IMG/VR virus record: IMGVR_UViG_3300022407_006288
Coordinates: 32,001 to 96,000 of that record
Source of the DNA: a virus
Reading direction: 5' to 3' (one strand)
DNA length: 64,000 nucleotides
In this document: positions 42,075 to 60,805 of the stretch, piece after piece
Layout of the letters: every line of letters begins with the position of its first letter
Numbering within the stretch: the stretch's first letter is position 1
Notes under the pieces: model-generated
Database searches by the model: none
Told to the model about the DNA's origin: nothing
The model's input: only the letters and a program-made list of their open reading frames with translations
Program-made: the position numbers and the translations under genes

Positions 42075-42105
42075 TAAAACAAATAAATTTTTATAAAGAG
42101 TAAAT

Positions 42106-43006: not shown

Positions 43007-43058
43007 GTTTTAATCATGTAGAGATATTATTAGATAAATATAGTTTTAAATATATATG

Positions 43059-43134: not shown

Positions 43135-43149
43135 TAGTTAGAAAACAAT

Positions 43150-43225: not shown

Positions 43226-43247
43226 CCTTATATGGTAGAACAACAAA

Positions 43248-43783: not shown

Positions 43784-43804
43784 CTATATTAGCCCTGTAC
43801 TATC

Positions 43805-43842
43805 AATCCGCAATTGTGTGCATCGCAGTTGCGGATTTTTTT
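43805..43842 (+). terminator. Terminator-like hairpin
   Basis: AATCCGCAA...TTGCGGATT followed by a T-run. Confidence 0.6.
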
Positions 43843-43943
43843 ATTTATAGTATCTTGATTAAACATACTTATTTAGAATCCAATTTAAGTAATAAATAAT
43901 ATCTAGTAATAGGACTAGGCCAAACTATTTTATTTGAGGTACT

Positions 43944-44603
43944 ATGGATTCTTTTATAGAAAGACTATCAGAATTACAACAATTTCTATCTAAACTGTCA
44001 TGGAAGAAAATTTTTCAGTTATTTGCGCTCCTGTTAATAATTTCAGTTGCATGGTTTTCCTATGCAATTAGCGATCAATTGTTCACTTATATAAGAACAG
44101 AAAAAATACAGCACATAGTTTCTCCAACCAAGCAGTTGTCCCAAACAACAATAGAGAAAATAACCGCAGCAACCAGCAGATCTGATCTTGTGTTGGGATC
44201 AGGCGTTACCATATTTAACTTTCAAAAAAATGTTAGGCATGTTATATATCTAGGTGCAAATTCGTATGATTTAAACGCTGATTTTAACAAGTATAATCAT
44301 CTATTGAATACAGAATCCCCCATATTTGGACAGAATGATTTTTATAATCGCAAAATAGTTGACATTATCAATGGCGATTTTATATGCGTACCTTATGAAA
44401 ATACACCATTTGCACAAGAAATGCCCGATTCAATACGTCATGCACAAACACTTTGCGTACATGGTATGCCACCGGTTTTTGGAAAACTTACCGGTACTGT
44501 TATGTTTTTCTTAAACAAGCCGCCCTCACTGGCAGAAACAGATCAGTTAAGAATCATAGCCAGAGATTTGTCTACATACATCTATGATCGTGAATTAAAA
44601 TAA
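43944..44603 (+). CDS. T4-type holin-like protein (single TM plus periplasmic GAF-like domain)
   Basis: TM at about aa 24-42; 219 aa; C-terminal LCVHGMPPVFGKLTGTVMFFL parallels T4 T YSCPYFNLDNIYAGTITMYW. Confidence 0.5.
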   Translation: MDSFIERLSELQQFLSKLSWKKIFQLFALLLIISVAWFSYAISDQLFTYIRTEKIQHIVSPTKQLSQTTIEKITAATSRSDLVLGSGVTIFNFQKNVRHVIYLGANSYDLNADFNKYNHLLNTESPIFGQNDFYNRKIVDIINGDFICVPYENTPFAQEMPDSIRHAQTLCVHGMPPVFGKLTGTVMFFLNKPPSLAETDQLRIIARDLSTYIYDRELK

Positions 44604-44615
44604 ATTAGGGCATTA

Positions 44616-45245
44616 TTGAAGCATAATGGAAGCACACACTCGCAGGATAGCAGCATGACTAAATTTAGATTTACTACTAGTAAAATTCTTATAATTACGA
44701 TTATATGTTTACTTTTACTGTTTGTGAGGTTATATTTTTCTCATGCTGCTAACGATCAATCTCGTGTTATTATAAAGCCGGAATTGTCGGAATATGTTGT
44801 CAACAATGTGCAGAGAATTCCCGATTTGGTTGGTGTACAGATTATTTCTATTAATCTACAAAAAAACACAAGATATGTAATGTACAGCTATTTTAAAGAT
44901 AGCAATGTTGACAAAATGTATTCGAATTTTTTTGAAAAAAGTCTCAGTGACGACATTCCTTTTTTCACCCGAGACAATGATAAAGTAAATTCATATCTTG
45001 TTAAATTAATTAATCATGAGTTTACATGTGTGCCTTATACAAGCACAGTCATGCACGAGTATGTTCCGGCAGCAGAAAAAAATATCAAATCAGTGTGTGC
45101 TGTTGCAATACCTCCGTCATATGGTTCTTTAACCGGCGCAATAGAGATATATCTAAGTAAAGAACCCGAAAATAAAGATGTACTAATAACAATTTCTAAA
45201 AATATTTCTAATCGCCTTATTACCGAAATAAACATCCGCCCCTGA
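44616..45245 (+). CDS. Paralog of 43944 (TM plus GAF-like domain)
   Basis: Shared INLQKNTRYV/FNFQKNVRHV, CVPY and CAVAIPPSYGSLTG motifs; start may be 44655. Confidence 0.5.
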   Translation: MKHNGSTHSQDSSMTKFRFTTSKILIITIICLLLLFVRLYFSHAANDQSRVIIKPELSEYVVNNVQRIPDLVGVQIISINLQKNTRYVMYSYFKDSNVDKMYSNFFEKSLSDDIPFFTRDNDKVNSYLVKLINHEFTCVPYTSTVMHEYVPAAEKNIKSVCAVAIPPSYGSLTGAIEIYLSKEPENKDVLITISKNISNRLITEINIRP

Positions 45246-45263
45246 GTCTATCACTCATACCAG

Positions 45264-45292
45264 TTGACATTTTTTTAAGATTTTTGTATAAT
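45264..45292 (+). promoter_or_regulatory. Consensus sigma70 promoter for the RNA ligase
   Basis: TTGACA-17 bp-TATAAT. Confidence 0.85.
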
Positions 45293-45317
45293 AGCAAAAA
45301 TCTACCACACGTGTCTT

Positions 45318-46388
45318 ATGCGAAAACTGGCCACTATTCGTCAAGTTAAAGAAATACTGCCAATTGCTGATGCAGATGCCATTGTCTTGGTCAAAATTGA
45401 TGGATGGAATTGTGTAGCACTAAAGGACGAATTTTCGATAGGCGACCGGTGTGTTTATTTTGAAATTGATAGTTTTATTCCCTTATGCCCACAAGTTGAG
45501 CACATTCGTGCCCGTGCATACAAACGTATGGGAGAAAAAGAAGGTGTGCGTATTAAAACTATTAAATTGCGTGGCGTTATTAGTCAAGGACTGGCACTGC
45601 CTTTAAGTAAATTTCCCAATGCTGTAGATGCGTATAATAATACCGCTCATGATTCGCAAGATGGCTATTTTGATGTATCGGACATACTGGGTGTGGAAAA
45701 GTATGAAATACCCGTTCCTGCATCCTTAAACGGTCAAATTTTTGGTAATTTCCCCACTTGTATTAAAAAGACTGATCAAGAGCGTTGTCAAAATCTGGGT
45801 GCGGATATTTTTGTTAAAAATCAAGATTCCCGATACGAAGTTACCATGAAACTTGATGGCACTTCCTTTACTGCATTTTACGTTAACGGAGATAGCGGAG
45901 TTTGTGGTCGCAACTGGCAATTGCAAATAAACGAAGAAAATCAACACAATAGCTTAATTCGTATGTACGTTGACAGTGATTTGCAACAAGTTTTAAGCAA
46001 ATTTGACAGAAATTTTGCACTACAGGGCGAGCTAATGGGTCCGGCTATACAAAAAAATCGTGAAGGCCTATCCGCACATAAACTGTTTATCTTTGACATC
46101 TATGACATTGATCGTGGTTGTTATTTAACGCCTGTTGATAGACACAGTGTCATGACTGAACTATGGCATCTTGGACTAAAGAAAAATATGGTACAACATG
46201 TGCCTGTACTACACGCTGATACAACACTTGGCAGTTTAGGCATCCACACAGTAGACGAACTTTTAAGGTTTGCAGAAGGCGTCAGTATTAATCATCCCGT
46301 ACGTGAAGGGCTGGTATTTAAGCGTGTCGATGGCGCTTTTAGTTTCAAAGCCATATCCAACATATTCTTGCTTAAATTTGAAGATTAA
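45318..46388 (+). CDS. RNA ligase (Rnl2/DRB0094-like)
   Basis: MRKLATIR...VYFEIDS N-terminal domain; KLDGTS, LQGELMG, REGLVFK, FKAIS. Confidence 0.9.
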   Translation: MRKLATIRQVKEILPIADADAIVLVKIDGWNCVALKDEFSIGDRCVYFEIDSFIPLCPQVEHIRARAYKRMGEKEGVRIKTIKLRGVISQGLALPLSKFPNAVDAYNNTAHDSQDGYFDVSDILGVEKYEIPVPASLNGQIFGNFPTCIKKTDQERCQNLGADIFVKNQDSRYEVTMKLDGTSFTAFYVNGDSGVCGRNWQLQINEENQHNSLIRMYVDSDLQQVLSKFDRNFALQGELMGPAIQKNREGLSAHKLFIFDIYDIDRGCYLTPVDRHSVMTELWHLGLKKNMVQHVPVLHADTTLGSLGIHTVDELLRFAEGVSINHPVREGLVFKRVDGAFSFKAISNIFLLKFED

Positions 46389-46429
46389 TTTTAAAAATTT
46401 CTTGATAAATAGTATATGGAACATATACT

Positions 46430-47263
46430 ATGAAATTATTTGAACTATTTTTAACGGAAACTACAGAGGAAGAAAGAGCAATACTTTCTTTATCTTCTGC
46501 TATTTCTAATCATATCAACAAGTATAAGGATATTGAGCCCGAACAGCTCAATTACGATGATTATGACTCCGATTACGACGACGATTTGGATATACACGGG
46601 GATGAAGATCAGCCACAAGATATAGGTACAATTGGTCAGTTATTTGACACACCTTTAGATATATTAAATCCCGTCAGACTTGAATTACAATCCGATTATG
46701 GAATTAGACAACGCATAAAAAGAGAAGACGAATCAGACAAGCAAATACTAAAACCTGGGTCAGATGATATATTGGGACTATGGTATTCTGATGGCAAGAC
46801 CATTGTGCTTAATAAAGATTATTTAGGATCACCGTCTTTAAAGTCAGCAGTATCCCATGAACTGAGACATGCTTTAGATGACTTTAAGTCTGATTTTAGA
46901 GCAAACACGCCCAATACCAAATATACAAAGTCCAAGATTAAATCTATTCGCAAGTTATCTGACAAGGATGATCCGCACGGGTTAAAAATATTATCTGAAC
47001 CTGCAGAAATAAATGCTAGATTTTCACAAGTACTTCATGCCATGACACCTGTTATAGCAAGATCAGTTAAACTTGAACCATACTATGCAGATAGACTTAT
47101 TAAAAATCAATTAAACAATGAGCTTGAACGTTATTTAATTGCAGATTTTTTCCCGCATAAACAAAATTCAAGAGAATATAAAAGATTTATAAAACGTGCA
47201 ATGGATTTTGTACAAAAAGAAAAGAAATATCAAGAAGACTTGTTAAAGTCAAAAAAAGATTAA
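46430..47263 (+). CDS. Putative internal virion protein with a zincin HExxH motif
   Basis: Starts MKLFELFLTE; SHELRHALD...EPAEINAR; GATAAATA at 46404. Confidence 0.55.
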   Translation: MKLFELFLTETTEEERAILSLSSAISNHINKYKDIEPEQLNYDDYDSDYDDDLDIHGDEDQPQDIGTIGQLFDTPLDILNPVRLELQSDYGIRQRIKREDESDKQILKPGSDDILGLWYSDGKTIVLNKDYLGSPSLKSAVSHELRHALDDFKSDFRANTPNTKYTKSKIKSIRKLSDKDDPHGLKILSEPAEINARFSQVLHAMTPVIARSVKLEPYYADRLIKNQLNNELERYLIADFFPHKQNSREYKRFIKRAMDFVQKEKKYQEDLLKSKKD

Positions 47264-47277
47264 ACAAAAGGCATGGT

Positions 47278-47706
47278 ATGTGGATTGAAAATGTAGCTGC
47301 CGCCGATGTTTTGTCGAGAAATCATCGAGATGCCGGGCACAACAGTATGCTGATTAGTATTGCTGACCCAGGCGGGTGGCATCCTACGCCCTCGCATAAT
47401 TTTAAAGAAATTCACGATTTTGAATTTTCCGATTTGGAAAAAGATCAGAAAATTATGGGTTCTGCAGTTAAGATTTTGGATGAAGATGCAGAAAGACTTG
47501 TGCGTTTATTGCAGCGTGCTTTTGAAAATCAAATGAATGTTGTGGTACATTGTGTGGCAGGTATATGCAGGTCAGGTGCAGTTTGCGAAGTAGGCATCAT
47601 GATGGGCTTTGAAGATACAGGCAGATTTCGTAATCCAAATCTACTGGTCAAACACAAAATGATGCAAGTGCTAGGGTGGAGTTACAACGAGGAAAACAAT
47701 GCATAA
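47278..47706 (+). CDS. Cys-dependent phosphatase (PTP/DSP-like)
   Basis: VVHCVAGICRSGAV (HCxxGxxR). Confidence 0.85.
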   Translation: MWIENVAAADVLSRNHRDAGHNSMLISIADPGGWHPTPSHNFKEIHDFEFSDLEKDQKIMGSAVKILDEDAERLVRLLQRAFENQMNVVVHCVAGICRSGAVCEVGIMMGFEDTGRFRNPNLLVKHKMMQVLGWSYNEENNA

Positions 47707-48124
47707 TATGAAAAAGTTTTTATTTATTGCACTACTATTTACAAATATTTGCTGTTATGCTGCAGAGATGACGTTGCCTATTCGCGGAGTGGCCGATGGC
47801 GACACAATTAAAACTAAATTAGATTTACCGTGCCCGTTGTGTTATGTGTCCATTAGAATTTTGGGAATAGATACCCCCGAATCAACCCGCCTGGCCAAAT
47901 GTCCGGCAGAATTGGCAAAAGGACTTGAAGCAAAGGCATTCCTTACCAATTTAGTCAAAGGACATGGTACCATGACAGTACGACATGTCAAGTGGGATAA
48001 ATATGGTGGCAGAATTGATGCAACCGTAGAAATTGATAATAAGAATGTTGCCGATTTGTTACTTGCAGCAGGTCTTGCAAAACCATATACCGGTCAAGGA
48101 CCAAAACCCAATTGGTGCTCTTAA
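47699..48124 (+). CDS. Thermonuclease (SNase-like), probably secreted
   Basis: DGDTI, IRILGIDTPE, DKYGGRI, LLLAAGLA; hydrophobic leader. Confidence 0.85.
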   Translation: MHNMKKFLFIALLFTNICCYAAEMTLPIRGVADGDTIKTKLDLPCPLCYVSIRILGIDTPESTRLAKCPAELAKGLEAKAFLTNLVKGHGTMTVRHVKWDKYGGRIDATVEIDNKNVADLLLAAGLAKPYTGQGPKPNWCS

Positions 48125-48183
48125 CCAGAATTACAATTGATATTATAATAAGACTACTAAATAAGTACGTAATAAAAAAATTT

Positions 48184-48258
48184 GCCCCTTTAGCATAGTG
48201 GTACTGCACCCGCCTTGTAAGCGGAAGATCGTCTGTTCGATTCAGACAAGGGGCACCA
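48184..48258 (+). tRNA. tRNA-Thr(TGT)
   Basis: GCCCCTT/AAGGGGC; anticodon loop CT-TGT-AA; ACCA. Confidence 0.9.
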
Positions 48259-48298
48259 ATAAAACATGTAAAGGATAATTAAAATAATAAAAAGCAAT

Positions 48299-48700
48299 AT
48301 GCATAAAAATTTTAATTGTCTAAATTGTGATAAAGAACATAACTTTAAAGGTTATAGTTATACTAATAAGTATTGCAATAATCAGTGTCAACAAGATTTC
48401 GAATATAAGGCAGCAATAAAAAATTGGGAAATTATTACACCCGGTAAAAGTAGAATTAAAAGATATCTTGCAGAATTATTTGGCAACAAATGTTCAATAT
48501 GTAATATTCAAACATGGTGTAATAAAGAAATTATTTTTGAATTAGAACATAGAGATGGTAATAGCGAAAATAATAATGCGGATAATTTGTGTTTAATTTG
48601 TCCAAATTGCCATAGTCAAACAAGTACATATAAAAATAAAAATATGGGCAATGGACGGCATATTAGGCGGCAGAGATACGCAGAAGGTAAAAGTTTTTAG
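48299..48700 (+). mobile_element. Free-standing HNH endonuclease within the tRNA array
   Basis: CSIC...ELEHRDGNSENNNADNLCLICPNCHSQT; N-terminal CLNC...YCNNQC; inserted between two tRNAs. Confidence 0.85.
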
Positions 48701-48728
48701 CAGTATATAAGTAATAAAGATATATTTG

Positions 48729-48802
48729 GCGAAATTAGTTTAATGGTAAAACCGTAGATTTCCAATCTTCTGTCATCAGTTCGATTCTGATATTTCGCTC
48801 CA
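48729..48802 (+). tRNA. tRNA-Gly(TCC)
   Basis: GCGAAAT/ATTTCGC; anticodon loop TT-TCC-AA; TCCA; one mismatch in the anticodon stem. Confidence 0.88.
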
Positions 48803-48834
48803 TCTAATACACAACAAAAAACAAGGACTCAATT

Positions 48835-49395
48835 ATGTCATTACGTGAATTTGCAAAAAATCATCATCCCAGGACTGACAAGTACGATCTAGGATACATA
48901 GAAACATTTTACGATGAATTGTTTACTCCTAGGTCTGCCGACGTAAAAAATTTACTCGAGATTGGTATTTACAAAGGTGATTCTATTTTGCTATGGAGAG
49001 ACTTTTTTCCTAACGCTATAATCACTGGTGCTGATATTACCCAGTGCCCACGTCTCCACTCAGAATCTCGTGTAGAAGTTTTTTATGAAAATGCATACAC
49101 ACACAATTTTGTGGACAAGTTCCCCAAGAATCACTTTGATATCATTATTGATGATGGCCCGCATACGTTTGAATCCATGCAGTTTTTCTTAAAGAATTAT
49201 TTAGAATTGGTGCAGCCCGGAGGTCTTTTAATTCTCGAGGATATTATTAACCCTGCGTGGACTCCGGAATTGGTAAAATTAATCGACCCTGCTGTCAGCA
49301 AGATAACTGCAGTGGACCTGCGAGGCAAACAACACACTGATAAATTATTACAAGATTGGAAAAACGGACTAGATGTGATCATTGTAGAAAAGTAA
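48835..49395 (+). CDS. Class I SAM-dependent methyltransferase
   Basis: LLEIGIYKGDS, ITGADI, DIIIDDGPH, PGGLLILED. Confidence 0.85.
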   Translation: MSLREFAKNHHPRTDKYDLGYIETFYDELFTPRSADVKNLLEIGIYKGDSILLWRDFFPNAIITGADITQCPRLHSESRVEVFYENAYTHNFVDKFPKNHFDIIIDDGPHTFESMQFFLKNYLELVQPGGLLILEDIINPAWTPELVKLIDPAVSKITAVDLRGKQHTDKLLQDWKNGLDVIIVEK

Positions 49396-49421
49396 TCAAC
49401 TGTTTGATTTGTTTTTAAAAT

Positions 49422-49607
49422 ATGAGTAATTGCACATGTGGCAGAACAACTCGTAAGCCCATGTGCGATAAGAGCTGCAGCCTAACCGAAGCCGAGTATG
49501 TTGCACGTACAGCAAGACTGTCTCAACTACAAGCTAATTCTAAAATTCAAAATACCATAGTTCCCCCAATTGCCAATACTGCTAGTTCTGATAACAATAA
49601 AGCATAA
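49422..49607 (+). CDS. CDGSH-like Fe-S/zinc finger protein
   Basis: CTCGRTTRKPMCDKSC matches C-x-C-x2-(S/T)-x3-P-x-C-D-x-S, with Cys at the His position. Confidence 0.6.
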   Translation: MSNCTCGRTTRKPMCDKSCSLTEAEYVARTARLSQLQANSKIQNTIVPPIANTASSDNNKA

Positions 49608-49645
49608 ATACTGTTCTAGCACATTCAAGTGCACAAGGAGAAAAC

Positions 49646-49765
49646 ATGGACTTAATCAGCATAGTACTTGGTATTGCAATCGGCGCCGCATTTTCACCAT
49701 TTTGGGTGTCAGTTTGGGCTAAAATTAAAAAGTCAATTAAATCAGCTACACCGCCTGCACCCTAA
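49646..49765 (+). CDS. Small membrane peptide (39 aa), not in the ORF track
   Basis: MDLISIVLGIAIGAAFSPFWVSVWAKIKK...; AAGGAG RBS. Confidence 0.65.
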   Translation: MDLISIVLGIAIGAAFSPFWVSVWAKIKKSIKSATPPAP

Positions 49766-49827
49766 GCAGTACGTGATCTTTATATGATAACCGCCTGAAC
49801 TATACTAATATAGTTCGGGTCAATAAT

Positions 49828-49915
49828 GGAAGATTGGCAGAGTGGCCGATTGCGTCAGTCTTGAAAACTGAAGGCCCGAAAGGGTCCGTGAGTTCGAATC
49901 TCACATCTTCCTCCA
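49828..49915 (+). tRNA. tRNA-Ser(TGA)
   Basis: GGAAGAT/ATCTTCC; TCAGT-CT-TGA-AA-ACTGA; long arm GGCCC-GAAA-GGGTC; CCA. Confidence 0.93.
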
Positions 49916-50012: not shown

Positions 50013-50156
50013 GCGTATTGTGGTAAATAAATAATTTAACACACATCAAAAACTATAGGTGAAGCAGTATTACTATAAAGTACTAGTACAGCTGATTATT
50101 TAAATAATTAGCAGTAGTACCATGTAAATAAACTTATAATAATATGCGAGGAATCT

Positions 50157-51305
50157 ATGATACACACAGACTTGGAAACAGACTCACTCGGTACTAAGTT
50201 ACCCACAATTGTTTATTTCAGTTATGATCATTCACACTCAACTGAGTGTACCGACCGAATAAGTAGCACAGCCACTTGTACATTTAAATTTCCCAGCACA
50301 TGGAGTGAACTGGCAACCCATTTAGAGTCGGGTGAACATATAGTTGCAATTCATATCAGCATGATAAAAAGATCTGATTCATCTATTTTGAATTTTTTAG
50401 GTGCAATTAGGGGATTATGCAAATGCATGCCTGTATCTGACAGCTTAAAAATTGCAGTGATCATTGATCAAGATACCGCTCAACATGAAATTGCCGAATT
50501 ACACAAACACAAAGTATTTGGTTTACTGCTAGATATTGAATGCTATCCCATTGATGACGTGTGTGCATCAATTGACTCGCTGATAGCAGGCATACCCCAT
50601 TGGCCCGAGCATATTACTAGTCAGCTGCCCAATCCACTGGCCACACTGGTAACTGTGTATTTTCGAAAAGATTGGGCTAAACATATAACTCCTCTCATGG
50701 CAGAAACTCTCAGTGGACAGATAACTTTAAATGTACGTTACTGTACCAGCTGGGAGGACTTGGATACAGCACTTTTGGAAAATCCTCATCAGCTGATAAT
50801 ACACGCTGATACCATCCGAGAGTTAAGTACCACCATACCAGAAATTATTTCAATGATCGAAACACGGTTAAGACTTTATGGACCACGTATACCCGTAGCA
50901 ATTGAAATTGAACCCACTACTGCCTTGCATGTCATAAAAGAATTAAAAAAATGCGGAGTATTTGGTATTGTGCCCAGTACAGCCACATGGGGAATTAATG
51001 AAACAATTACTGCTATTCGCGCACTGGTCAAACGTGTTCCCTATTGGCCCAAGCATATTATTGATCAGCTGCCCGGCAACAAACTGGTTATAAAAAACAA
51101 AAAATCCGGAATTAGTGTAACACCACGACAACGTCAAGTTTTGGATCTTATATGCAATCGCGGATTAAGCAATAAACAAATTGCCAAATCATTAAGTATT
51201 TCCGAAAGTACTGTAAAAATACATATTGGGTGCATACTCAAAGAGTACGGTGTAAGAAATAGAACACAGCTGGTTTTGGCTGCAGCTTGTCTCCTGAAAG
51301 CATAA
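50157..51305 (+). CDS. LuxR/NarL-type regulator with two tandem atypical receiver-like domains
   Basis: C-terminal TPRQRQVLDLI..GLSNKQIAKSLSISESTVKIHI; internal duplication (…FGL…GIPHWPEHI / …FGI…RVPYWPKHI). Confidence 0.85.
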   Translation: MIHTDLETDSLGTKLPTIVYFSYDHSHSTECTDRISSTATCTFKFPSTWSELATHLESGEHIVAIHISMIKRSDSSILNFLGAIRGLCKCMPVSDSLKIAVIIDQDTAQHEIAELHKHKVFGLLLDIECYPIDDVCASIDSLIAGIPHWPEHITSQLPNPLATLVTVYFRKDWAKHITPLMAETLSGQITLNVRYCTSWEDLDTALLENPHQLIIHADTIRELSTTIPEIISMIETRLRLYGPRIPVAIEIEPTTALHVIKELKKCGVFGIVPSTATWGINETITAIRALVKRVPYWPKHIIDQLPGNKLVIKNKKSGISVTPRQRQVLDLICNRGLSNKQIAKSLSISESTVKIHIGCILKEYGVRNRTQLVLAAACLLKA

Positions 51306-51402
51306 TAGCCCACGCCCTCGTGGCATATTTTTTTAAATAAAAATCTATAACGCTGAAGTGCTATTCCTGCTAAAGTACTTGGTATAATACCTGTTTAATC
51401 TT

Positions 51403-51446
51403 TAAATAAATGCATACTACAAATGGAAATTGGTTCTGTCTGTAGT
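51403..51446 (+). repeat. Conserved promoter/leader copy 1
   Basis: TAAATAAATGCATACTACAAATGGAAATTGGTT...TGTAGT; the ACTACA/TGTAGT arms can pair. Confidence 0.8.
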
Positions 51447-51514
51447 ACAAGATCGACTAAACTGTGTTTGCGTAATTTATGCAGTTAGTCTTATTTAATT
51501 AAGGAATTATTATC

Positions 51515-52078
51515 ATGGCCGATATGACAGGACTAACAACTGATCCATTTTTCTCATTACTTGCTCAAGTGCAAGACGTCAAGACCAAAGTTTCAGACAG
51601 CATTTTTGAAAACTACAAGCTACAAATAGCACAATCAAACGACATCAACAACCGTGCAATGCAAGTTGCATTGCATGACACAGCCGCATTTGCTGATTTG
51701 AAAAATGCGGTTTCTAATGGTACATTGCAGACCATGCTTGCTGCTGCACGCACTGATGCTGCTATTGCCGCAACTGCAATGAGCACACAACGTGTTGTCA
51801 TGGAACAGGGCGAAGCTACTCGTGGATTAATTGCTGCACTAAACACACAAAACTTGAATACTGCATTGATCAACACAAACACAGCTCTTTACAGTCTAAA
51901 CGGACAGTATTCCGGATTAGGTCTTGCATATGGCGGCGCTGTTGCTGCTGTTCAAAGCGCAAATTCTGTTAGCTCAGTGAATGCACTACACAGTGCTGTA
52001 TCCGGTCAGAGATTGATCAATACAGGTAGCATGGCTTCTACATCACAGACATCTACACCGACATCTATTGGCGGCTAA
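51515..52078 (+). CDS. Ala/Asn/Gln/Thr-rich hypothetical protein, paralog 1
   Basis: First 37 aa identical to 52296; AAGGA RBS; no Cys or Trp. Confidence 0.8.
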   Translation: MADMTGLTTDPFFSLLAQVQDVKTKVSDSIFENYKLQIAQSNDINNRAMQVALHDTAAFADLKNAVSNGTLQTMLAAARTDAAIAATAMSTQRVVMEQGEATRGLIAALNTQNLNTALINTNTALYSLNGQYSGLGLAYGGAVAAVQSANSVSSVNALHSAVSGQRLINTGSMASTSQTSTPTSIGG

Positions 52079-52097
52079 AAGTACACTTGTACTTTAC

Positions 52098-52126
52098 AAA
52101 ATACCTTCCTTCCGGGAGGTATTTTT
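52098..52126 (+). terminator. Rho-independent terminator
   Basis: AAAATACCTTCC-TTCC-GGGAGGTATTTTT. Confidence 0.75.
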
Positions 52127-52197
52127 ATGGCTAAAATTTACATAATATTGAAGTTGTAGTTGTACTAATGCATGTATTAAATCCCCAGTCTATCCAT

Positions 52198-52241
52198 TAA
52201 ATAAATGCATACTACAAATAGAAATTGGTTTTACTTGTAGT
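52198..52241 (+). repeat. Conserved promoter/leader copy 2
   Basis: TAAATAAATGCATACTACAAATAGAAATTGGTT...TGTAGT. Confidence 0.8.
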
Positions 52242-52295
52242 TATTATAACTGAAGCTACAAAAGTTTTGGTATTTTTAATTAAGGAATTATTATC

Positions 52296-52856
52296 ATGGC
52301 CGATATGACAGGACTAACAACTGATCCATTCTTTTCATTACTTGCCCAAGTGCAAGATGTCAAGACCAAAGTTTCAGACAGCATTTTTGAAAACTACAAG
52401 CTACAAGTAGCACAAGCAAATGACATCAACAATCGCGCAATGCAAGTAGCATTAAGCAACGCAACTGCACTCACCGACTTGAAGCAGGCAACTACTGAAA
52501 GCACACTACAAACCATGCTTGCTGCTGCACGCACTGATGCTGCTATTGGCGCAACTGCAATGAGCACACAAAGTGTTATTATGCAGCAAGGTGAAGCAAC
52601 TCGTGGATTAGTTGGCGGATTGAACACACAAAACTTGAATACCGCATTGATCAACACAAACACAGCTCTTTCTAGCCTAAACGGTCAATACTCTGGCTTA
52701 GGTCTTGCATATGGCGGCGCTGTTGCTGCTGTTCAAAGCGCAAATTCTGTTAACGCAGTAAATGCTCTTAATAGCGCAATTGCAACACAAGGCCTGGTTA
52801 ACACAGGTACTATGACTGGAACTACACAAACCGCAACACCAACATCTATTCGTTAA
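52296..52856 (+). CDS. Ala/Asn/Gln/Thr-rich hypothetical protein, paralog 2
   Basis: Tandem duplicate of 51515. Confidence 0.8.
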   Translation: MADMTGLTTDPFFSLLAQVQDVKTKVSDSIFENYKLQVAQANDINNRAMQVALSNATALTDLKQATTESTLQTMLAAARTDAAIGATAMSTQSVIMQQGEATRGLVGGLNTQNLNTALINTNTALSSLNGQYSGLGLAYGGAVAAVQSANSVNAVNALNSAIATQGLVNTGTMTGTTQTATPTSIR

Positions 52857-52873
52857 TAGATAAGGAGGTTATT

Positions 52874-53047
52874 ATGTTTGGATCTAACATTGGATACGGG
52901 GCCTGGTCGCCACGTGGATATTTAGGTGCCGGCATAGGATATCCATATTATGGATATTCTGGATGTGGATACCCGTACGGCGGATGCCCATACGGTGGAT
53001 ATCCAGGATGGGGATTTTACAATTCTCCCTATCTTCCGTTAATTTAA
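52874..53047 (+). CDS. Tyr/Gly/Pro-rich peptide (57 aa), not in the ORF track
   Basis: MFGSNIGYGAWSPRGYLGAGIGYPYYGYSGCGYPYGGCPYGGYPGWGFYNSPYLPLI*; AAGGAGG RBS. Confidence 0.75.
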   Translation: MFGSNIGYGAWSPRGYLGAGIGYPYYGYSGCGYPYGGCPYGGYPGWGFYNSPYLPLI

Positions 53048-53065
53048 GTTATAGATAAGTGGATC

Positions 53066-53093
53066 ATAGACTGACTCACGTGAGTCAGTCTAT
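53066..53093. repeat. Perfect 28-bp palindrome
   Basis: ATAGACTGACTCACGTGAGTCAGTCTAT. Confidence 0.9.
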
Positions 53094-53110
53094 TTTAAAG
53101 GAGAACAAAA

Positions 53111-53314
53111 ATGTACCCAGGATACTTATATCCCTATTACAGAAGCTATGCATATCCTTACCCAAGTTGGGTGTATGGTGGTTATACAGGTTATGGTGGC
53201 TACGGTGGTTATGGATCAAATATTATAGGCAGCGCAATTGCCAATCAAAGTGTTATAAACACCGGCAACATTGCAGGATTTACACAAACAGCCACACCCA
53301 CAGTTATTTGGTAA
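53111..53314 (+). CDS. Tyr/Gly/Pro-rich peptide sharing the C-terminal motif of 51515/52296
   Basis: MYPGYLYPYYRSYAYPYP...GYGGYGGYG...SAIANQSVINTGNIAGFTQTATPT; AAGGAG RBS. Confidence 0.75.
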   Translation: MYPGYLYPYYRSYAYPYPSWVYGGYTGYGGYGGYGSNIIGSAIANQSVINTGNIAGFTQTATPTVIW

Positions 53315-53331
53315 TAACAGAAAGGTCTTAT

Positions 53332-53514
53332 ATGTATAAAAAAATATCACATAACATATTAAAAGAACACTTTGATAGTCCGGCATTTATGCCAACATCT
53401 AGTTTACCTAAATTAGGTGATAATTTTATACATCCCGGTAATGGATCGTTATCTATTAACAATCCATTACTTTATTATGTGATAAATGAAGACATTATGC
53501 AATTTAGGAAATAA
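53332..53514 (+). CDS. Small hypothetical protein (60 aa)
   Basis: MYKKISHNILKEHFD...; AAGG RBS; likely the real part of track ORF 53059-53514. Confidence 0.55.
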   Translation: MYKKISHNILKEHFDSPAFMPTSSLPKLGDNFIHPGNGSLSINNPLLYYVINEDIMQFRK

Positions 53515-53515
53515 T

Positions 53516-54022
53516 ATGACTGATTTTGAAGATAACAAACATAGGTTAGAATTAATTAAAATGTCAAGGGAACTGCTTAATGAGGAATACATTAATCGAC
53601 GTGCTCAAGATCATAATAGATGGTTGGCAGAAAGTGACGTAATGTGGAAAGCAAAGCGAGTAAAACTTCCATATCCGCCCTTTGCTGCATATCCTACAGA
53701 TGAAGAAATTGTTGCAAAAGCAACTGTTCTTTATAATTTTGTAAACACAAAACCTGCGGTTGAGCCCGCTCCTGCACCAATTGATGTGATACCAACCCCG
53801 GTGGAGATAGCAGCAACTAACAAAATTTTATCAACACCTATAGCAGAGCCCTTGCAATCTCCATGGGACAAATATTTAACACCCGAACAAGAGCCTATAT
53901 TGAACGAACCAGTTGCTGACATATCAGTCCCTCAAACACCGGTCGAAGAAACTCAATCAACACAGTCGTCGTTAGTACAGAATTTATTACCGGGCTGGAT
54001 TAGAAGAAATCAATCAGCCTAA
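53516..54022 (+). CDS. Hypothetical protein with a Pro-rich tail
   Basis: RLELIKMSRELL...YPTDEEIVAKATVLYNFV; AGGA RBS. Confidence 0.65.
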   Translation: MTDFEDNKHRLELIKMSRELLNEEYINRRAQDHNRWLAESDVMWKAKRVKLPYPPFAAYPTDEEIVAKATVLYNFVNTKPAVEPAPAPIDVIPTPVEIAATNKILSTPIAEPLQSPWDKYLTPEQEPILNEPVADISVPQTPVEETQSTQSSLVQNLLPGWIRRNQSA

Positions 54023-54030
54023 GGAGTGTT

Positions 54031-54522
54031 ATGTTTAACAATTTAGGTATATTTAGCAATAATTTAATCACCCCTATTATACTTCGTGGTGCCACATCGC
54101 CGTGTCTAGCACCACGTATTCCTGTATGTCCGAGTCCGGCTTCCGATGCCATAGAAATCGGCGGCATTGGTAACGATATTATTAACATCGGCGGCGGGGG
54201 TGTAGGACCACCCGGCCCCCCAGGACCACCCGGTACTATTGGACTGGTACCAGTGACTGATGTAGCAACACCCACATACACGGCATTAAGCACTGACTAT
54301 TTTTTATGTGTATTAACCAATGGATTAGTTACTATTACATTACCAACAGGTATATTAGGGACAGTATACATTGTTAAAGATTGTTTTGGTGATGCAGCAA
54401 ACAACCCAATTACTATTCAGGGTACAGGCGGGCAGTTAGTCGATGGCAGTACAGCCACTATTAACACCAATTTTGGTAGCTTACAATTCGTATTCAATGG
54501 ATTTGATTGGAGCATAGTATGA
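54031..54522 (+). CDS. Short collagen-like protein with a C-terminal beta domain
   Basis: GVGPPGPPGPPGTIG; C-terminal domain TITLP...YIVKD...ITI...VDG...GSLQFVFNGFDW. Confidence 0.75.
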   Translation: MFNNLGIFSNNLITPIILRGATSPCLAPRIPVCPSPASDAIEIGGIGNDIINIGGGGVGPPGPPGPPGTIGLVPVTDVATPTYTALSTDYFLCVLTNGLVTITLPTGILGTVYIVKDCFGDAANNPITIQGTGGQLVDGSTATINTNFGSLQFVFNGFDWSIV

Positions 54523-54564
54523 TTTATTTGATAAAATTAACAATAGACTTTAAGGAGAATTAAT

Positions 54565-55722
54565 ATGTTAGGTATATTTTCAGCAAACTTTCCTCAAGGA
54601 CCTCTGCGTCCGGGAATTAACTTACGTAGACCGGTTCGGGTGTTTGCAGGACAAATTGCAAATTATAACCGCGGATATGGTTCAGTAAACACCAACTCAA
54701 TGAGTGGTACAAATCTACTTCGTTTAACTGTTACTAGTACAACACCGCAAACAATTCCTCAAGGACCCGGTATTGTGCCTCTTAATGACATGTTATTGAC
54801 CAGTACAATTAATGGAAACTTTGTGTCAACATTTGACGCTGACTACGGTATTGTCGGCGACTTAATCGATATTACTGCCGCAGGTGCCGCCGCTAATACA
54901 GCGTTAGCTGCACAGTTAGCCGCATTACCCGGTGGCGTTCCACACGGTGCTGTATTTGGCAACGGCGAAGTTTTAACACCCGGTATTTACGATGTAGTAA
55001 CTCCTGCTGCTATTCAAGGCATTTTGACATTGAACGGTGGCGGTGATCCCAATGCATTGTTTGTGATCAGAGTTGCCGGCGCATTAACCAGTGTGGCCGC
55101 AAGTCAGGTGTTATTAACAAATGGTGCCACAGCCAACAATGTGTTCTGGGTAAGTCAAGGTGCCACAGCACTAGGTGCTAATACCATCTTTCGTGGCACA
55201 GCATTGGCAGTAGGGGGAGCCGCTGGCATAGGTGCCGGCAGCATAGTTAATGGTAGATTGTTATCGACACTTGGCGCAGTTACTACTGACACCAGTATAG
55301 TAACACAACCAGGTGCTACAACAACTGCTATTGCATTGGGTGTGCTTGAAAACTTTGCTCTATTCACCAATAGCGGTGCGGTAGCCAATACAGGGACAAG
55401 CATCATAACTGGGAACATTGGAACCAATCTAGGACTTATTACTGGATACGGACTCCCAACTATAGTAAATGGCAACGTATATATTCCGGGAAGTTTGGCT
55501 GCTGGTCCAGTAGCCGCTGACTTTGGTATCTATAAGAATGGAGTATTGATTCCGGGTACATTAGTTTCAGTATCCGGTCCAACAACAATTACTGCCGCTC
55601 ACGTGACATCAACGGGTCCTGTGGTATTGTTAGTGGGTGATGTAGTTACTGCTAGAGCAACTGCTGTACTAGGCACATTAACAGTGAATACAAGAACATT
55701 AACTTTACAACAGGTACCGTAA
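54565..55722 (+). CDS. Ice-binding protein (DUF3494), circularly permuted, inside a BclA-CTD-like domain
   Basis: LTPGIY...LTLNGGGDPNALFVI...LTSVAASQVLLTNGATANNVFW...GRLL, followed by LGVLENFALFTNSGAVANTGTSIITGNIG. Confidence 0.8.
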   Translation: MLGIFSANFPQGPLRPGINLRRPVRVFAGQIANYNRGYGSVNTNSMSGTNLLRLTVTSTTPQTIPQGPGIVPLNDMLLTSTINGNFVSTFDADYGIVGDLIDITAAGAAANTALAAQLAALPGGVPHGAVFGNGEVLTPGIYDVVTPAAIQGILTLNGGGDPNALFVIRVAGALTSVAASQVLLTNGATANNVFWVSQGATALGANTIFRGTALAVGGAAGIGAGSIVNGRLLSTLGAVTTDTSIVTQPGATTTAIALGVLENFALFTNSGAVANTGTSIITGNIGTNLGLITGYGLPTIVNGNVYIPGSLAAGPVAADFGIYKNGVLIPGTLVSVSGPTTITAAHVTSTGPVVLLVGDVVTARATAVLGTLTVNTRTLTLQQVP

Positions 55723-55797
55723 TATAGTTTATTTATAGAGCCTACCCGAATTAAAGAGAGACAAAATTTAACTAACAACATCACAAGGAAAATTAAA

Positions 55798-56199
55798 ATG
55801 TCATATACAAACAATCCAACTTCGATACTTGCCGGACCAGGTATCACCGTTGTACCAACAACAGGTACCGGTGCAGAAGTAGTTACCATCAGTGCTAGCG
55901 GCGGCGGATTCGTAGATATTAGAACTGCTGTTGCAACTCCTGTTACGGTAGTGGCTGCAACTGATAATATCATTGATGTAGCTGTTCCAGGTCCAGTTGC
56001 CGTAGCAGTAACATTACCTGCTGGTGTACTAGGCCAAGAGTTCACAATCAAAGATGGATTAGGTTTAGCAGCACCTGCAACTCCAATCACTATCACACCA
56101 ACTGCTGGTACAATTGATGGTGCAGCAACTGCAGTTATCGATGCACCATATGGTTCATTAACATTTGTGTACAATGGTACGCAATGGTTGATTCTATAA
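55798..56199 (+). CDS. Beta-domain protein paralogous to the C-terminus of 54031
   Basis: VTLPAG..G.EFTIKD...PITI...TIDG...YGSLTFVYNGTQW. Confidence 0.75.
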   Translation: MSYTNNPTSILAGPGITVVPTTGTGAEVVTISASGGGFVDIRTAVATPVTVVAATDNIIDVAVPGPVAVAVTLPAGVLGQEFTIKDGLGLAAPATPITITPTAGTIDGAATAVIDAPYGSLTFVYNGTQWLIL

Positions 56200-56217
56200 A
56201 TTTAATAAGGCAATATC

Positions 56218-56748
56218 ATGTACACACGAGTAAATGTATATCCAAACGGGGCACCGATTCCTTCGGTGCTCCCTGATAGTTATCAATCTTCAATGTATGG
56301 TAATACCCCAGCCGGCCAGAGTTGTTCCAACTGTAAAAATTTTAATACAACTAACTTCTATTGCGAAGCATGGAAAGCCCCGGTTAAACCGCGCTGGTGG
56401 TGCGCTGGCTGGGCTCCCGTAGCCAAACTAACACGCCACGGTACAGTAGCTGTGCTATCAAAAAAGATAACAACTAGCATGGTAGAAGAGCACTTTGCCG
56501 AGGTCCCGAAATTGGCATCAAGTCAATTAAGTTATGGTAACGAAAACGAAGAAGATGTTATCAGGCTTAATGTTCCCCTAATGATTCGTTTGTTAGAGTG
56601 GGCTAGAGAAGGCGCCAGCAAAGATGCCGAATTGCACATTATTGCCGAACGATTAATTGATCTCAGCGATGAGGGCGACACACTCACAATGAGTGATTAT
56701 CCTGATATAGTTGTCCAAGAGACTACAGTAGATAGAAAGGAAAATTAA
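56218..56748 (+). CDS. HiPIP-like 4-Cys domain fused to a helical domain
   Basis: Y...GQSCSNC-x9-C...V.P.WWCAGW. Confidence 0.6.
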   Translation: MYTRVNVYPNGAPIPSVLPDSYQSSMYGNTPAGQSCSNCKNFNTTNFYCEAWKAPVKPRWWCAGWAPVAKLTRHGTVAVLSKKITTSMVEEHFAEVPKLASSQLSYGNENEEDVIRLNVPLMIRLLEWAREGASKDAELHIIAERLIDLSDEGDTLTMSDYPDIVVQETTVDRKEN

Positions 56749-56751
56749 ATC

Positions 56752-57360
56752 ATGAATAAAGTGATTATAATACATTACGAAGAAGATCCTGAAGCAATCT
56801 CAAAATTTAAAATTTTGTCACAGCGATTATGGAGCGAACATAATAGTTATACAAGAAATGGCATAATTAGTGCATTAGCAGGATTGCCCGATCTTGGCGA
56901 TGTAATGAATAGATTAATGAGAAATCAAGAAGATATTGGTCAATTTATTGCTCCGTATTATGGTGCGGAAGCTGCTACTTCATTAACTAATTTGCTAAAA
57001 GAACATATTAATATTGCAGCTAACATAGTTGTTGCAGCAAGTCAAAATAAAAGTACGGCTGATCTCGAAGCCACATGGCAGGCTAATGCAGTGTCTATAG
57101 CTGATCTCTTAGCTTCGCTTGATCCAGTCTATTGGTCTAAAAATATTGTACTGCCTGTGCTTCAACAACATTTAGCATGTACATTAAAAGAAATTGTATC
57201 TAGGTCAAAAAAAGATTGGTTAACAGATATTGCTGCCTATGATGACTGTTCTGCAGTAGTTGCAGTCCTTGCTGAAGTAATAGCCTACGGTATTGTGTAT
57301 AACTTTCCGGAAGAATTTATTATACAATATAAATCAAAGTCTTTTAAAAAAGTATACTAA
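56752..57360 (+). CDS. His-containing helical-bundle protein of a family typical of spore-formers
   Basis: LWSEHNSYTR, LPDL...RLMRNQEDIG...YYG, LLKEHINIA, WQANA..IA.LL, LQQHL, DIAAYD. Confidence 0.6.
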   Translation: MNKVIIIHYEEDPEAISKFKILSQRLWSEHNSYTRNGIISALAGLPDLGDVMNRLMRNQEDIGQFIAPYYGAEAATSLTNLLKEHINIAANIVVAASQNKSTADLEATWQANAVSIADLLASLDPVYWSKNIVLPVLQQHLACTLKEIVSRSKKDWLTDIAAYDDCSAVVAVLAEVIAYGIVYNFPEEFIIQYKSKSFKKVY

Positions 57361-58112
57361 AAGCAAAGCCCTTTTGGTCGGGCTATAAATTACAAAAGGA
57401 TGTCAGCGATGATCGAGATTTTGTATATACGCCCACCAATAAGCCCCTACGGGATGTTGTTGACCTGCGAAAATGGGCAAGCCCCATTGAAGATCAAAAA
57501 TATCTAGGAAGTTGTACAGCAAATGCAATTGTGGGTGCACATGAGTTATTGACAATTAAAGAATTTCCAAAACAATTTGTTGACCTCAGTAGACTATTTG
57601 TGTACTATAACGAGCGATTAATAGAAGGCACAATTAGCGAAGATTCCGGTGCATACCTAAGAACAGGAATTAAAGCAGTAAAGACTTATGGAATATCTAC
57701 TGAAGCACTGTGGCCTTATAATATAAGTAAGTTTTCAACTACACCATCTCCAGAAAGTTACCAAGATGCAAAGTATAGAAACATTAAAAATTATTATCGT
57801 GTAGATAGCAATGATAAAATGCTTGATGCACTAAATAATGATATACCTGTGGTTGTAGGCGTGTTGCTTTATGAAGCATTTGATTCACTGGATAAAAATA
57901 ATTACGTACTTGGTTTACCAGCTGACACAGAATCATTTACAGGAGGGCATGCCATGGTGCTAGTTGGATATGATTTACCAAAAAAATTATTTTTAGTTAG
58001 AAATAGTTTTGGCATTGATTGGTGTATTGATGGATATTGCTGGATTACATTTGCATACATGGAAGAAAAATTATTAGATGCTTGGATATTTGATATTGAT
58101 TTAATTACTTAA
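57354..58112 (+). CDS. Papain-like C1 cysteine peptidase; start non-canonical or frameshifted
   Basis: Frame open from 57348: DRDFVY...VDLRKWASPIEDQKYLGSCTANA, GGHAM, VRNSFG..W. No ATG/GTG/TTG precedes the catalytic Cys. Confidence 0.8.
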   Translation: MLKAKPFWSGYKLQKDVSDDRDFVYTPTNKPLRDVVDLRKWASPIEDQKYLGSCTANAIVGAHELLTIKEFPKQFVDLSRLFVYYNERLIEGTISEDSGAYLRTGIKAVKTYGISTEALWPYNISKFSTTPSPESYQDAKYRNIKNYYRVDSNDKMLDALNNDIPVVVGVLLYEAFDSLDKNNYVLGLPADTESFTGGHAMVLVGYDLPKKLFLVRNSFGIDWCIDGYCWITFAYMEEKLLDAWIFDIDLIT

Positions 58113-59938: not shown

Positions 59939-60805
59939 TTAAGAAACAATTGGTATAGCTGTTGCTGTTACACTTGCAGGAGGTGCTGCAAAAGTAATTG
60001 TAGCTGATACATAACCAGTACCGCCAACTATGTTGGTAATTCCTGTTACTGCTCCGCTGGCGTTTATTACTGCTGTAGCAGAAGCACCTGTACCCGGACC
60101 ACCAATAGTCACTATTGGTGCAACTGAGTAATAGTTGCCGCCAACAAGACTGGTAATACTAGTAAATGCTCCAGCATTAACGACAGCAGTAGCTGTTGCT
60201 GTAACCGCTGCGGCTGGCGCAGCAATTGTGGCTGTTGCGTTTGTTGCATATCCCGAACCTGGATTTCCAACAGTGATAGCAGTTACAACGCCACCAACAA
60301 CTGTTGTTGTCAATATAGCACCTGTACCCGGCGGGCTTGAAATAGTAATTGATGGTACAGATGTATATCCGCGACCGCCATTAGTAATTTGAAAGCTAAG
60401 AATTTGTCCAGCCACACCCATATTAATTAGGTCAGCTTGCCCCAATGCAACAGCCGGCCGTGTTGACCAGGTATAGCTGACAACTGTACCATTTTCAAAA
60501 ACATCAACACGATATTGTGCTATCTTTGAGCAAGGTACTGGTGAACCTCCAAACGGAGTTGCAAGAATAAAACATTCTCCCGTATTTAGCGCACTAATAC
60601 TTGATGCATTAACCATGAATACAATTTCAGGTGCATGTATTTGTGCTGAATCTTGAACCATATAAGCACTTGAACCTGTTTGTTTTACAATGAATGCATC
60701 CGAGTATGATACGCCATCAGCAAATTTAACACCGTTTACTCTTATATGATTTGATCCAGGACCAACTGGTTCTCCGAACCATTTTTTCTGAATTGGTTTT
60801 CCCAT
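59939..60805 (-). CDS. Virion structural protein with GxGY beta repeats
   Basis: MGKPIQKKWFG N-terminus; ITNGGRGYTS, GNPGSGY and VGGTGY repeats; late promoter at 60885-60892. Confidence 0.6.
   Translation of the reverse strand: MGKPIQKKWFGEPVGPGSNHIRVNGVKFADGVSYSDAFIVKQTGSSAYMVQDSAQIHAPEIVFMVNASSISALNTGECFILATPFGGSPVPCSKIAQYRVDVFENGTVVSYTWSTRPAVALGQADLINMGVAGQILSFQITNGGRGYTSVPSITISSPPGTGAILTTTVVGGVVTAITVGNPGSGYATNATATIAAPAAAVTATATAVVNAGAFTSITSLVGGNYYSVAPIVTIGGPGTGASATAVINASGAVTGITNIVGGTGYVSATITFAAPPASVTATAIPIVS

Follow-up and report, generated by a model that had tools for sequence, protein, structure and literature searches.

In Bacillus, the exosporium nap (BclA) and the GerE-controlled spore-coat genes bring together a regulator with a GerE/LuxR helix-turn-helix (HTH) lying beside structural genes, collagen-like proteins with a globular C-terminal domain, short N-terminal motifs on several structural proteins, small Tyr/Gly-rich proteins and a dedicated protease. 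All these features recur in the locus described here, a LuxR-headed gene cassette of an uncultured phage, found in a stretch of 64,000 nucleotides (the window) that comprises bases 32001-96000 of one 130,872-bp contig, IMG/VR record IMGVR_UViG_3300022407_006288. According to our analysis, large freshwater phages of the T4 superfamily, forming an uncultured clade, have conserved this region as a self-regulated structural cassette, and we tentatively read it as a self-regulated kit for an accessory, separately controlled layer of fibres or 'hair' on the virion (head or tail), or for a coat.

The likeness to spore coat and exosporium, which the initial annotation had put forward, holds in composition and not as homology, which is not established. 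The collagen protein of the cassette has five triplets and ends in a tailspike-type beta sandwich, not in BclA_C; no module protein matches the ExsY/CotY, ExsFA/BxpB basal-layer or Tgl families in Pfam or NCBIfam, and no protein of the window matches BclA_C (PF18573). The nearest approach is a 183-aa (amino acid) protein of one relative, locus L034, which stays below threshold (E 0.0056, 17 bits versus a cutoff of 38). The carrier also differs, being a T4-type phage, probably of a Gram-negative host.

Among phage structures, the whiskers of T4 made of fibritin (wac) and other head or neck fibres share with the cassette a parallel, in-register coiled-coil rod (for the Par proteins of the cassette, in a model), a short conserved C-terminal element and, putatively for the module, the character of an accessory, non-essential-looking virion fibre in a T4-type phage. 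Par differs from fibritin in that it has no sequence similarity to it and no PHROG or Pfam match, is an uncharged, Ala/Asn/Thr-rich protein of 187 aa that often occurs in two copies, and is predicted to be expressed under a regulator and a promoter class of its own, not the general late promoter. The internal proteins of T4, in turn, are diverse and share only a capsid-targeting sequence (PMC3012670). The cassette resembles them in its diverse, fast-evolving proteins with a short conserved N-terminal peptide containing an (L/I)xE-type site, and in its T4-superfamily carrier. This is analogy only: the peptide in question, here called the MYKK tag, is unrelated in sequence and confined to the module, which adds fibre-type proteins and a peptidase of its own.

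Conservation of the cassette

As relatives we took 41 distinct viral loci from a ParA-based scan of IMG/VR, compared by tblastn and at the level of open reading frames (ORFs). In these 41 uncultured viral contigs the order runs LuxR, one or two Par genes, the Tyr/Gly-rich YG1 and YG2, one or more p202-type genes, p178, the collagen protein, several beta-sandwich paralogs, sometimes p176, and the C1 peptidase, with the LuxR gene directly upstream in 32 of the 41 and the module proteins conserved at 60-87% identity. The flanking genes are mostly not shared with the genome studied here, and those that are map to quite different parts of it; one module (L001), for instance, adjoins terminase, gp32, UvsX and UvsY. 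Since order is kept and flanks differ, the cassette has been retained while its surroundings changed. Separate and shuffled occurrence of the genes in relatives, which the initial annotation had named as evidence against its proposal, was looked for and the opposite was found. The co-oriented genes which that annotation listed are all where it had placed them (Table 1).

The content is not fixed in every part. The ice-binding gene, p176 and YG1 are optional, the number and kind of fibre paralogs vary among phages, and some relatives have members that the window lacks, namely an XhlA-like protein of 80 aa and proteins of 183-189 aa to which the sub-threshold BclA_C match belongs. The XhlA-like protein (L011, 12585-12827, with equivalents in L001 and L034; Pfam 8e-06) has a coiled coil and a C-terminal membrane helix and is encoded between a p202-type gene and p178.

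More distant relatives of Par were reached by profile search (E 1e-11 to 1e-15), and we read the surroundings of four of them. Three have a GerE/LuxR gene no more than two genes away from Par, two have collagen-like genes after it, and one has a Peptidase_C1 gene; the distant module L048 encodes a p178-like protein and two beta-sandwich fibre proteins besides. Most of these contexts keep the linkage, and therefore the association of regulator, Par and fibre genes is old. Taken as a whole, the comparison supports the view that the genes of the cassette function as a single unit, with the LuxR-type gene at its head and probably in control of it.

Table 1. Features of the cassette and its neighbourhood, in positions of the window
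Feature	Position	Strand	Description
Eight tRNA genes	36886-49915		ARAGORN
tmRNA-like gene	39005-39445		ARAGORN; unusual tag of 26 residues, ending MMIAA
Composite promoter element before LuxR	50060..50132	+	TGAAGC, then GTACTAGTAC, then box TAAATAAA at 50125-50132
LuxR/GerE-type regulator, 382 aa	50157..51305	+	Two internal receiver-like repeats and NarL-type HTH
Terminator-like hairpin 3' of LuxR	51310..51323	+
parA promoter element and 5' leader hairpin	51354..51447	+	TGAAGT..GTACT..TAAATAAA, box 51403-51410; hairpin 51415-51447
ParA, 187 aa	51515..52078	+	Uncharged Ala/Thr/Ser/Asn-rich long helix (11-163) and conserved C-terminal tail (..NTG..Q[TS].[TS]P[TS].I)
Terminator-like hairpin 3' of parA	52105..52119	+
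parB promoter element and 5' leader hairpin	52149..52241	+	Box 52198-52205; hairpin 52211-52241
ParB, 186 aa	52296..52856	+	81% identical to ParA
YG1, 57 aa	52874..53047	+	Gly 28%, Tyr 21%, Pro 12%; homologs in 14 locus ORFs
YG2, 67 aa	53111..53314	+	Tyr/Gly-rich N-terminal half (protein: Tyr 19%, Gly 18%) and ParA/B-type C-terminal tail; 33 homologous ORFs
60-aa ORF	53333-53514	+	Good Shine-Dalgarno, perfect N-terminal tag MYKKISHNILKEHF; overlaps annotated p178 start
p178	53516..54022	+	Conserved ~85-aa N-terminal helical domain and Pro-rich tail
coll163	54031..54522	+	N-terminal tag MFNNLGIFS, 5 G-X-Y triplets, C-terminal beta-sandwich domain; phrog_20556 1.6e-4
IBP385	54565..55722	+	N-terminal MLGIFS tag and ice-binding-like beta-helix domain; accessory member
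beta133	55798..56199	+	Small fibre-like protein; phrog_15797 8e-08
p176	56218..56748	+	Cys4 domain fused to helical domain
p202	56752..57360	+	Six-helix bundle, AlphaFold2 (AF2) pLDDT 94.7
C1 (papain-family) cysteine peptidase	57348..58112	+	Stop-to-stop frame, Cys/His/Asn motifs
288-aa Ala/Thr/Gly-rich repeat protein	59939-60805	minus	Between module and rIIA

The regulator and its promoters

The gene that heads the module encodes, as had been proposed, a LuxR-type regulator: its HTH matches GerE (PF00196; E 5e-15, 55 bits versus a cutoff of 23.5) and the DNA-binding domain of NarL (2.9e-08). The two internal repeats, of about 120 aa each, match one another at E 6e-17 and have no Pfam Response_reg match; positions 72-203 align in a match to the ErdR model, and a His (judged by eye) stands where the phospho-acceptor Asp is expected. 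Quorum-sensing LuxR proteins have been described in some phages. The module protein is not of the quorum-sensing type because it has no autoinducer-binding domain (Autoind_bind, searched to E 0.1), and RhlR and CviR align to it over the HTH only. It comes closer to the matrix regulators of the CsgD/VpsT type (CsgD, NCBIfam, 1.5e-10; VpsT, PDB 3kln, 1.4e-05), with which it shares a LuxR-family HTH, a non-canonical receiver-like N-terminal part and a position at the head of an operon for self-assembling structural proteins. From these, and from the phage-encoded LuxR receptors, it differs in that the matches are essentially to the HTH alone, in its two tandem receiver-like repeats and in the missing autoinducer domain.

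Upstream of LuxR, parA and parB lies a composite element, in which TGAAG[TC] is followed 5-30 nucleotides (nt) on by GTAC(T) and some 15-50 nt further by the box TAAATAAA. The pattern TGAAG[TC]..GTAC..TAAATAA[AT] has exactly three copies on both strands of the 131-kb genome, before these three genes only. The ordinary late promoter box of the genome is instead GATAAATA, with 39 copies in the window, including those before the portal and other structural genes. The relatives have the equivalent layout 5' of their own LuxR and par genes, with the box TAAGTAAT or TAACTAAT, and the three most divergent loci have TATAAATA before par. Counted near start codons in the relatives, the TAA[ACG]TAA box occurs 29 times inside the module against 7 outside, and most copies of the T4-type late box [GT]ATAAATA are found outside it (5 inside, 14 outside). 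By their sequences, then, LuxR, parA and parB are under a dedicated predicted promoter type, distinct from the ordinary late promoter of the phage, and we infer that the LuxR-type protein activates its own gene and the par genes.

The two par genes were rightly described as tandem paralogs with a duplicated promoter and leader, their upstream blocks being near-identical (79% column identity). Each carries a promoter of its own as well as a strong Shine-Dalgarno sequence, and each par unit starts after a terminator, as seen from the terminator-like hairpins 3' of LuxR and of parA. In every case the par leader can form a hairpin immediately 3' of the box. Scored by per-sequence folds with shuffles, the leader hairpins of 34 distinct relatives have a mean minimum free energy of -11.2 kcal/mol and a mean z of -2.59, with 26 of the 34 below -2. 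Their stems vary in sequence among loci and contain G-U pairs (40 of 463), and we therefore regard the hairpin as a 5' RNA structure and not a protein operator; on the same grounds the palindrome after the promoter box was dropped as a candidate LuxR operator. RNAalifold gave no consensus for these hairpins, the stem registers differing between loci. Promoter, strong Shine-Dalgarno sequence, terminator and leader hairpin together make up what is, on paper, a signature of very high par expression.

Another element precedes YG2: within 53048-53110 a box GATAAGTG is followed by a perfect 10-bp hairpin (AGACTGACTC/GAGTCAGTCT). It resembles a promoter of the late type with its leader hairpin, and is distinct from the par-type element.

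Proteins of the cassette and their setting

Par is widespread beyond this locus. Its family comprises 750 clusters at 90% identity, all of them metagenomic or labelled uncultured Caudovirales, on contigs of up to 357 kb. A profile search among 1.84 billion representatives returned 107 proteins. Some 80 of them, with lengths of 230-450 aa, exceed Par in size and align solely to its C-terminal two thirds, up to the C-terminal tail, the best-conserved part of the wider superfamily. No relatives were found in Pfam (E up to 10), PHROG, PDB sequences or, by fold, with Foldseek. R-body (RebB), flagellin and curli were considered for ParA and dropped, in view of the missing Pfam, PDB and Foldseek matches and of the AF2 model, a straight helix and not a hairpin. 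The match of a distant Par relative to Hamiltonella phage APSE covers an 11-mer-repeat stretch only (DUF1640, 'putative tail fibre') and is too weak to use.

The AF2 monomer of ParA is a single helix over residues 11-163 (pLDDT 77), with a tail that is disordered yet conserved; charged residues make up 10-11% of the Par proteins. Modelled as four copies, ParA reaches an ipSAE of 0.61 against 0.00 for the best control, the runs sharing at least 58% of contacts with partner pLDDT of at least 57. The closest contacts over residues 11-117 are i-to-i, which indicates a parallel, in-register coiled coil. When the tool was calibrated, 20 of 30 proteins known as solved pairs reached the ipSAE mark, as against 1 of 23 solved as single chains, counts that hold only roughly for ParA, for which a custom alignment and four copies were used. 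Self-association of Par is plausible, being supported by the model and not proven; the self-assembly suggested in the initial annotation is thus plausible as well.

The proteins of the module do share short terminal motifs, as had been noticed, and we distinguish three tags among otherwise unrelated members. The C-terminal tail of Par recurs at the end of YG2, with tail-to-tail tblastn matches in several loci. The MYKK tag, MYKK[IVL][ST]H.I.EEHF.HP, is near-identical over 17 residues and starts 39 ORFs in the loci, belonging to at least four unrelated families (the p202-type, p176-type and 215-aa helical families as well as a His-rich peptide); selection acts on the peptide, because third-codon positions vary freely. 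In the present genome it is intact once, at 53333, with an internal relic in p176 and a degenerate form at the start of p202. The third tag, MFNNLG[IL][FY]S followed by an Arg-rich stretch, stands at the start of the collagen proteins and of IBP385. Judging from this distribution, the three tags may serve as docking or processing signals within an assembly. No signal peptide was seen on inspection of the module proteins.

YG1 and YG2 have the Tyr and Gly contents expected from their first description as Tyr/Gly-rich peptides (Table 1). The 60-aa ORF that carries the intact MYKK tag is a truncated copy of the p202-type gene present at that position in relatives, and the true start of p178 is probably 53516. 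p178 is conserved in 35 locus ORFs as well as in the distant module L048, and its structural neighbours in the Atlas are phage proteins of about 90 aa without known function.

For p176 a HiPIP-like nature had been proposed. Its Cys36, 39, 49 and 62 are indeed invariant in all homologs with the Cys domain, but p176 itself has no match to Pfam HIPIP (PF01355), which is approached only in relative L021 (E 0.017, 15.8 bits versus a cutoff of 22), below the cutoff; redox enzymes, also suggested for the module, are not established in it. The MYKK-tag relic KKITTSMVEEHFAEVP at 56461-56508 falls at the junction of the two domains of p176, which points to a fusion of two genes that L014, L021 and other relatives encode separately. 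p202, described earlier as a His-rich helical protein, is modelled as a helical bundle but has only 4 His in 202 residues. Fold searches gave nothing meaningful for it (Foldseek best E 0.1; VIA-align best Z 9.8, to designed bundles and rhodopsins, which is below the meaningful level for helical bundles). It has homologs P0138 and P0129; its bacterial homologs have signal peptides, and the neighbourhood of the one from Paenibacillus was uninformative.

The supposed (GPP)n collagen protein, coll163, is collagen-like, with a stretch that is limited here to its five G-X-Y triplets; collagen proteins of the relatives have 5-22, and Pfam Collagen matches occur in distant modules. The repeats match collagen-like tail-fibre PHROGs. 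In the distant module L051 (574-7406), genes for GT8, GT25 and a sugar-nucleotide enzyme lie just 5' of the GerE, Par and collagen genes. The GT25 family includes collagen galactosyltransferases, and by analogy the collagen-like fibres of L051 may be glycosylated.

The second beta-domain protein, beta133, is paralogous to the domain with which coll163 ends, in agreement with its first description. It matches Phage_depo_C (PF25692) at E 0.044, below the family cutoff, and the beta-sandwich domain matches a 'baseplate' PHROG weakly. Homologs of this domain, at 39-55% identity, recur in proteins of 725-1879 aa with Pectate_lyase_3 or Beta_helix domains, and it therefore appears to be an ordinary C-terminal domain of tailspike/depolymerase-type proteins. 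An assignment to ordinary fibre roles, which the initial annotation had set against its own proposal, is in this respect partly approached.

IBP385 is by its sequence a member of the ice-binding-like family (DUF3494, PF11999; E 1.6e-28, 100 bits versus a cutoff of 28.7), residues 93-246 matching profile positions 56-207. Its residues from about 258 to 296 resemble the usual N-terminal start of Ice_binding domains, and the domain could be permuted or duplicated. The BclA-CTD-like shell (CTD, C-terminal domain) in which it had been placed has no sequence support, IBP385 showing no similarity to the BclA C-terminal family. The gene occurs in one other contig only (L014 = L042), and because of this freeze protection, suggested as a benefit of the system, is not its core function.

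The last gene encodes a C1 peptidase, as first annotated (PF00112; E 7.7e-11, 42.9 bits versus a cutoff of 20.7). Its best solved relative is xylellain, the papain-family peptidase of Xylella fastidiosa (PDB 3ois; E 6.6e-36 over residues 4-247, with GSC, GGHA and NS.G motifs aligned), from which the phage copy differs by the absence of a signal peptide, of a long propeptide and, in this window, of a canonical start. The peptidase genes of the relatives are free-standing and start with ATG or GTG at the corresponding place; the window has ATA for ATG. The frame is -1 relative to p202, which ends TTT AAA AAA GTA TAT TAA, and a hairpin follows at 57367-57384. A non-canonical start, a frameshift fusion, an assembly error and a decaying gene are possible explanations of the missing start; against a -1 frameshift from p202 into the peptidase on TTT AAA AAA G, the heptamer is non-canonical and the peptidases of the relatives are free-standing.

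The carrier phage belongs to the T4 superfamily, with a portal protein 55% identical to that of Pseudomonas phage PA5oct. It encodes a gp21-type prohead protease (phrog_207, 5e-58), a major head protein, rIIA and SbcC-like genes, and the N-terminus of its capsid protein has LxE-type sites. A Gram-negative host is plausible, and several early promoters of the window resemble canonical TTGACA/TATAAT. Among 185,579 species genomes scanned, a single match was found, on a 10-kb contig of a metagenome-assembled genome of Chitinophagales. We do not adopt a Chitinophagales host from it; the early promoters of the window look canonical. The window has nine RNA genes, eight for tRNAs and one resembling transfer-messenger RNA (tmRNA); just 5' of the module, three of the tRNA genes alternate with an HNH-motif ORF and a gene for a methyltransferase. 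On the other side, matches of the 288-aa repeat protein fall in the repeats of large PHROGs annotated as 'virion structural protein', 'baseplate wedge' and 'head closure'.

Proposed accessory fibres and the competing explanations

If the product is a layer of accessory virion fibres, the LuxR-type protein would switch on itself and the heavily expressed par genes, and Par coiled coils would form a fibrous scaffold, onto which the tags would dock the Tyr/Gly peptides, the helical-bundle and Cys4 proteins and the short collagen/beta-sandwich fibres. The papain-type peptidase would trim or mature the docked proteins, and the result would be an optional addition to the particle, fibres or 'hair' on the virion surface. 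We favour this explanation because coiled-coil rods, collagen repeats, tailspike-type beta sandwiches and an ice-binding-type beta helix typify exposed phage fibres, and because phages differ in how many fibre paralogs they have, a variability characteristic of surface parts. A number of observations weigh against it. Ordinary virion genes use GATAAATA and not the module promoter, which may mean that the module contributes nothing to the virion; one would not usually expect Tyr/Gly-rich peptides, tagged helical bundles or a Cys4 protein in a fibre; and no module protein has a known anchor to head or tail. The predicted binding of LuxR to the composite element is drawn only from their co-occurrence. 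The peptidase frame, open from 57348, has no ATG, GTG or TTG before 57531, and the catalytic Cys lies upstream of that position. Among 50,697 deposited phage records there was no match, by megablast of the region or by tblastn of ParA, IBP385, beta133 and the N-terminal domain of p178. The fibre explanation does not account neatly for a promoter class apart from that of the virion genes, for the Tyr/Gly peptides or for tagged proteins of a non-fibre kind, and therefore three rivals remain.

In line with the initial annotation, the product might be a cross-linked protective shell or matrix (like a spore coat, an exosporium or an occlusion body) around virions, the infected cell or released progeny, and not discrete fibres, which we consider rather unlikely. 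A GerE-type regulator, small Tyr/Gly-rich proteins, tagged collagen-like proteins and an own cysteine peptidase do parallel coat and exosporium kits, the relatives contribute their sub-threshold BclA_C match (E 0.0056), the dedicated and very strong promoter class apart from the virion late promoters fits a product made in bulk, and the uncharged composition of Par suits dense packing. The likeness, however, is in composition only, with no coat or exosporium family at threshold; no family of oxidases, peroxidases or transglutaminases that could do the cross-linking was found, and the repeated beta domain appears to be of the tailspike/depolymerase type. Signal peptides were not seen on inspection, and any shell would therefore form in the cytoplasm. 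A version of this idea, to which we give a similarly modest chance, is that the kit builds a coat or matrix round finished particles, with coiled-coil filaments, a Tyr/Gly-rich filler, tagged cargo and a collagen-like nap, switched on conditionally by the LuxR-type pseudo-receiver regulator.

It is improbable, in our estimate, that the MYKK-tagged proteins, and perhaps Par, are packed in the prohead as internal cargo and delivered with the DNA, the tag being a targeting sequence removed by the prohead protease. The near-identical tag on at least four unrelated families would suit such a role, and it contains I-x-E; (L/I)xE is the type of site cut by T4-type prohead proteases, and the phage has both a gp21-type protease and LxE-type sites at the capsid protein N-terminus. 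The module also adjoins tRNA genes and an HNH-motif ORF, and T4 internal-protein genes sit in a similar setting. Yet the tag is confined to the module and intact once in the whole 131-kb genome, it is missing from Par, from the YG peptides and from the collagen and beta-sandwich proteins, the latter two being of a fibre type that one would not expect within a capsid, and the T4 internal-protein genes have no peptidase and regulator of their own as the module does. Doubtful, too, is a structure that exists only within the cell during infection, cytoskeleton-like or scaffolding, which would organise replication or assembly and be absent from the released particle. Such a role agrees with the lack of recognisable signal peptides, with Par as a long helix modelled to self-associate, with a promoter class different from that of the virion genes and with a regulator whose receiver-like domains could time or gate expression; against it, tailspike-type beta sandwiches, collagen repeats and ice-binding-type beta helices typically belong to proteins exposed at a surface, and fibre paralogs varying in number and kind suit surface or host-facing parts. 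Finally, the module could consist of unrelated accessory genes (morons) that lie together by chance and share no function, an explanation that would account for members that mostly have no assigned function and for the optional ones (the ice-binding gene, p176 and YG1). It is effectively excluded by order and content kept in 41 contigs, and partly in distant relatives, with changing flanks, by the tags common to members and by the promoter element common to LuxR and the par genes.

The cassette is real, widespread and undescribed, clear in the logic of its regulation and assembly and a common but unseen feature of large environmental phages, and identities of 60-87% are unusual for phage accessory proteins. 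It offers a compact regulon of three promoters with a candidate operator for a phage LuxR-type regulator, and its coiled-coil, Tyr/Gly and collagen parts are of possible interest to protein-materials work. If a conditional coat were true, one phage would release 'bare' or 'coated' progeny according to host state, a phage counterpart of the spore exosporium or the baculovirus occlusion body. If the cassette makes an optional virion coat, these phages would regulate the surface of the particle separately from core morphogenesis, with an effect on persistence, adsorption and host range in lakes.

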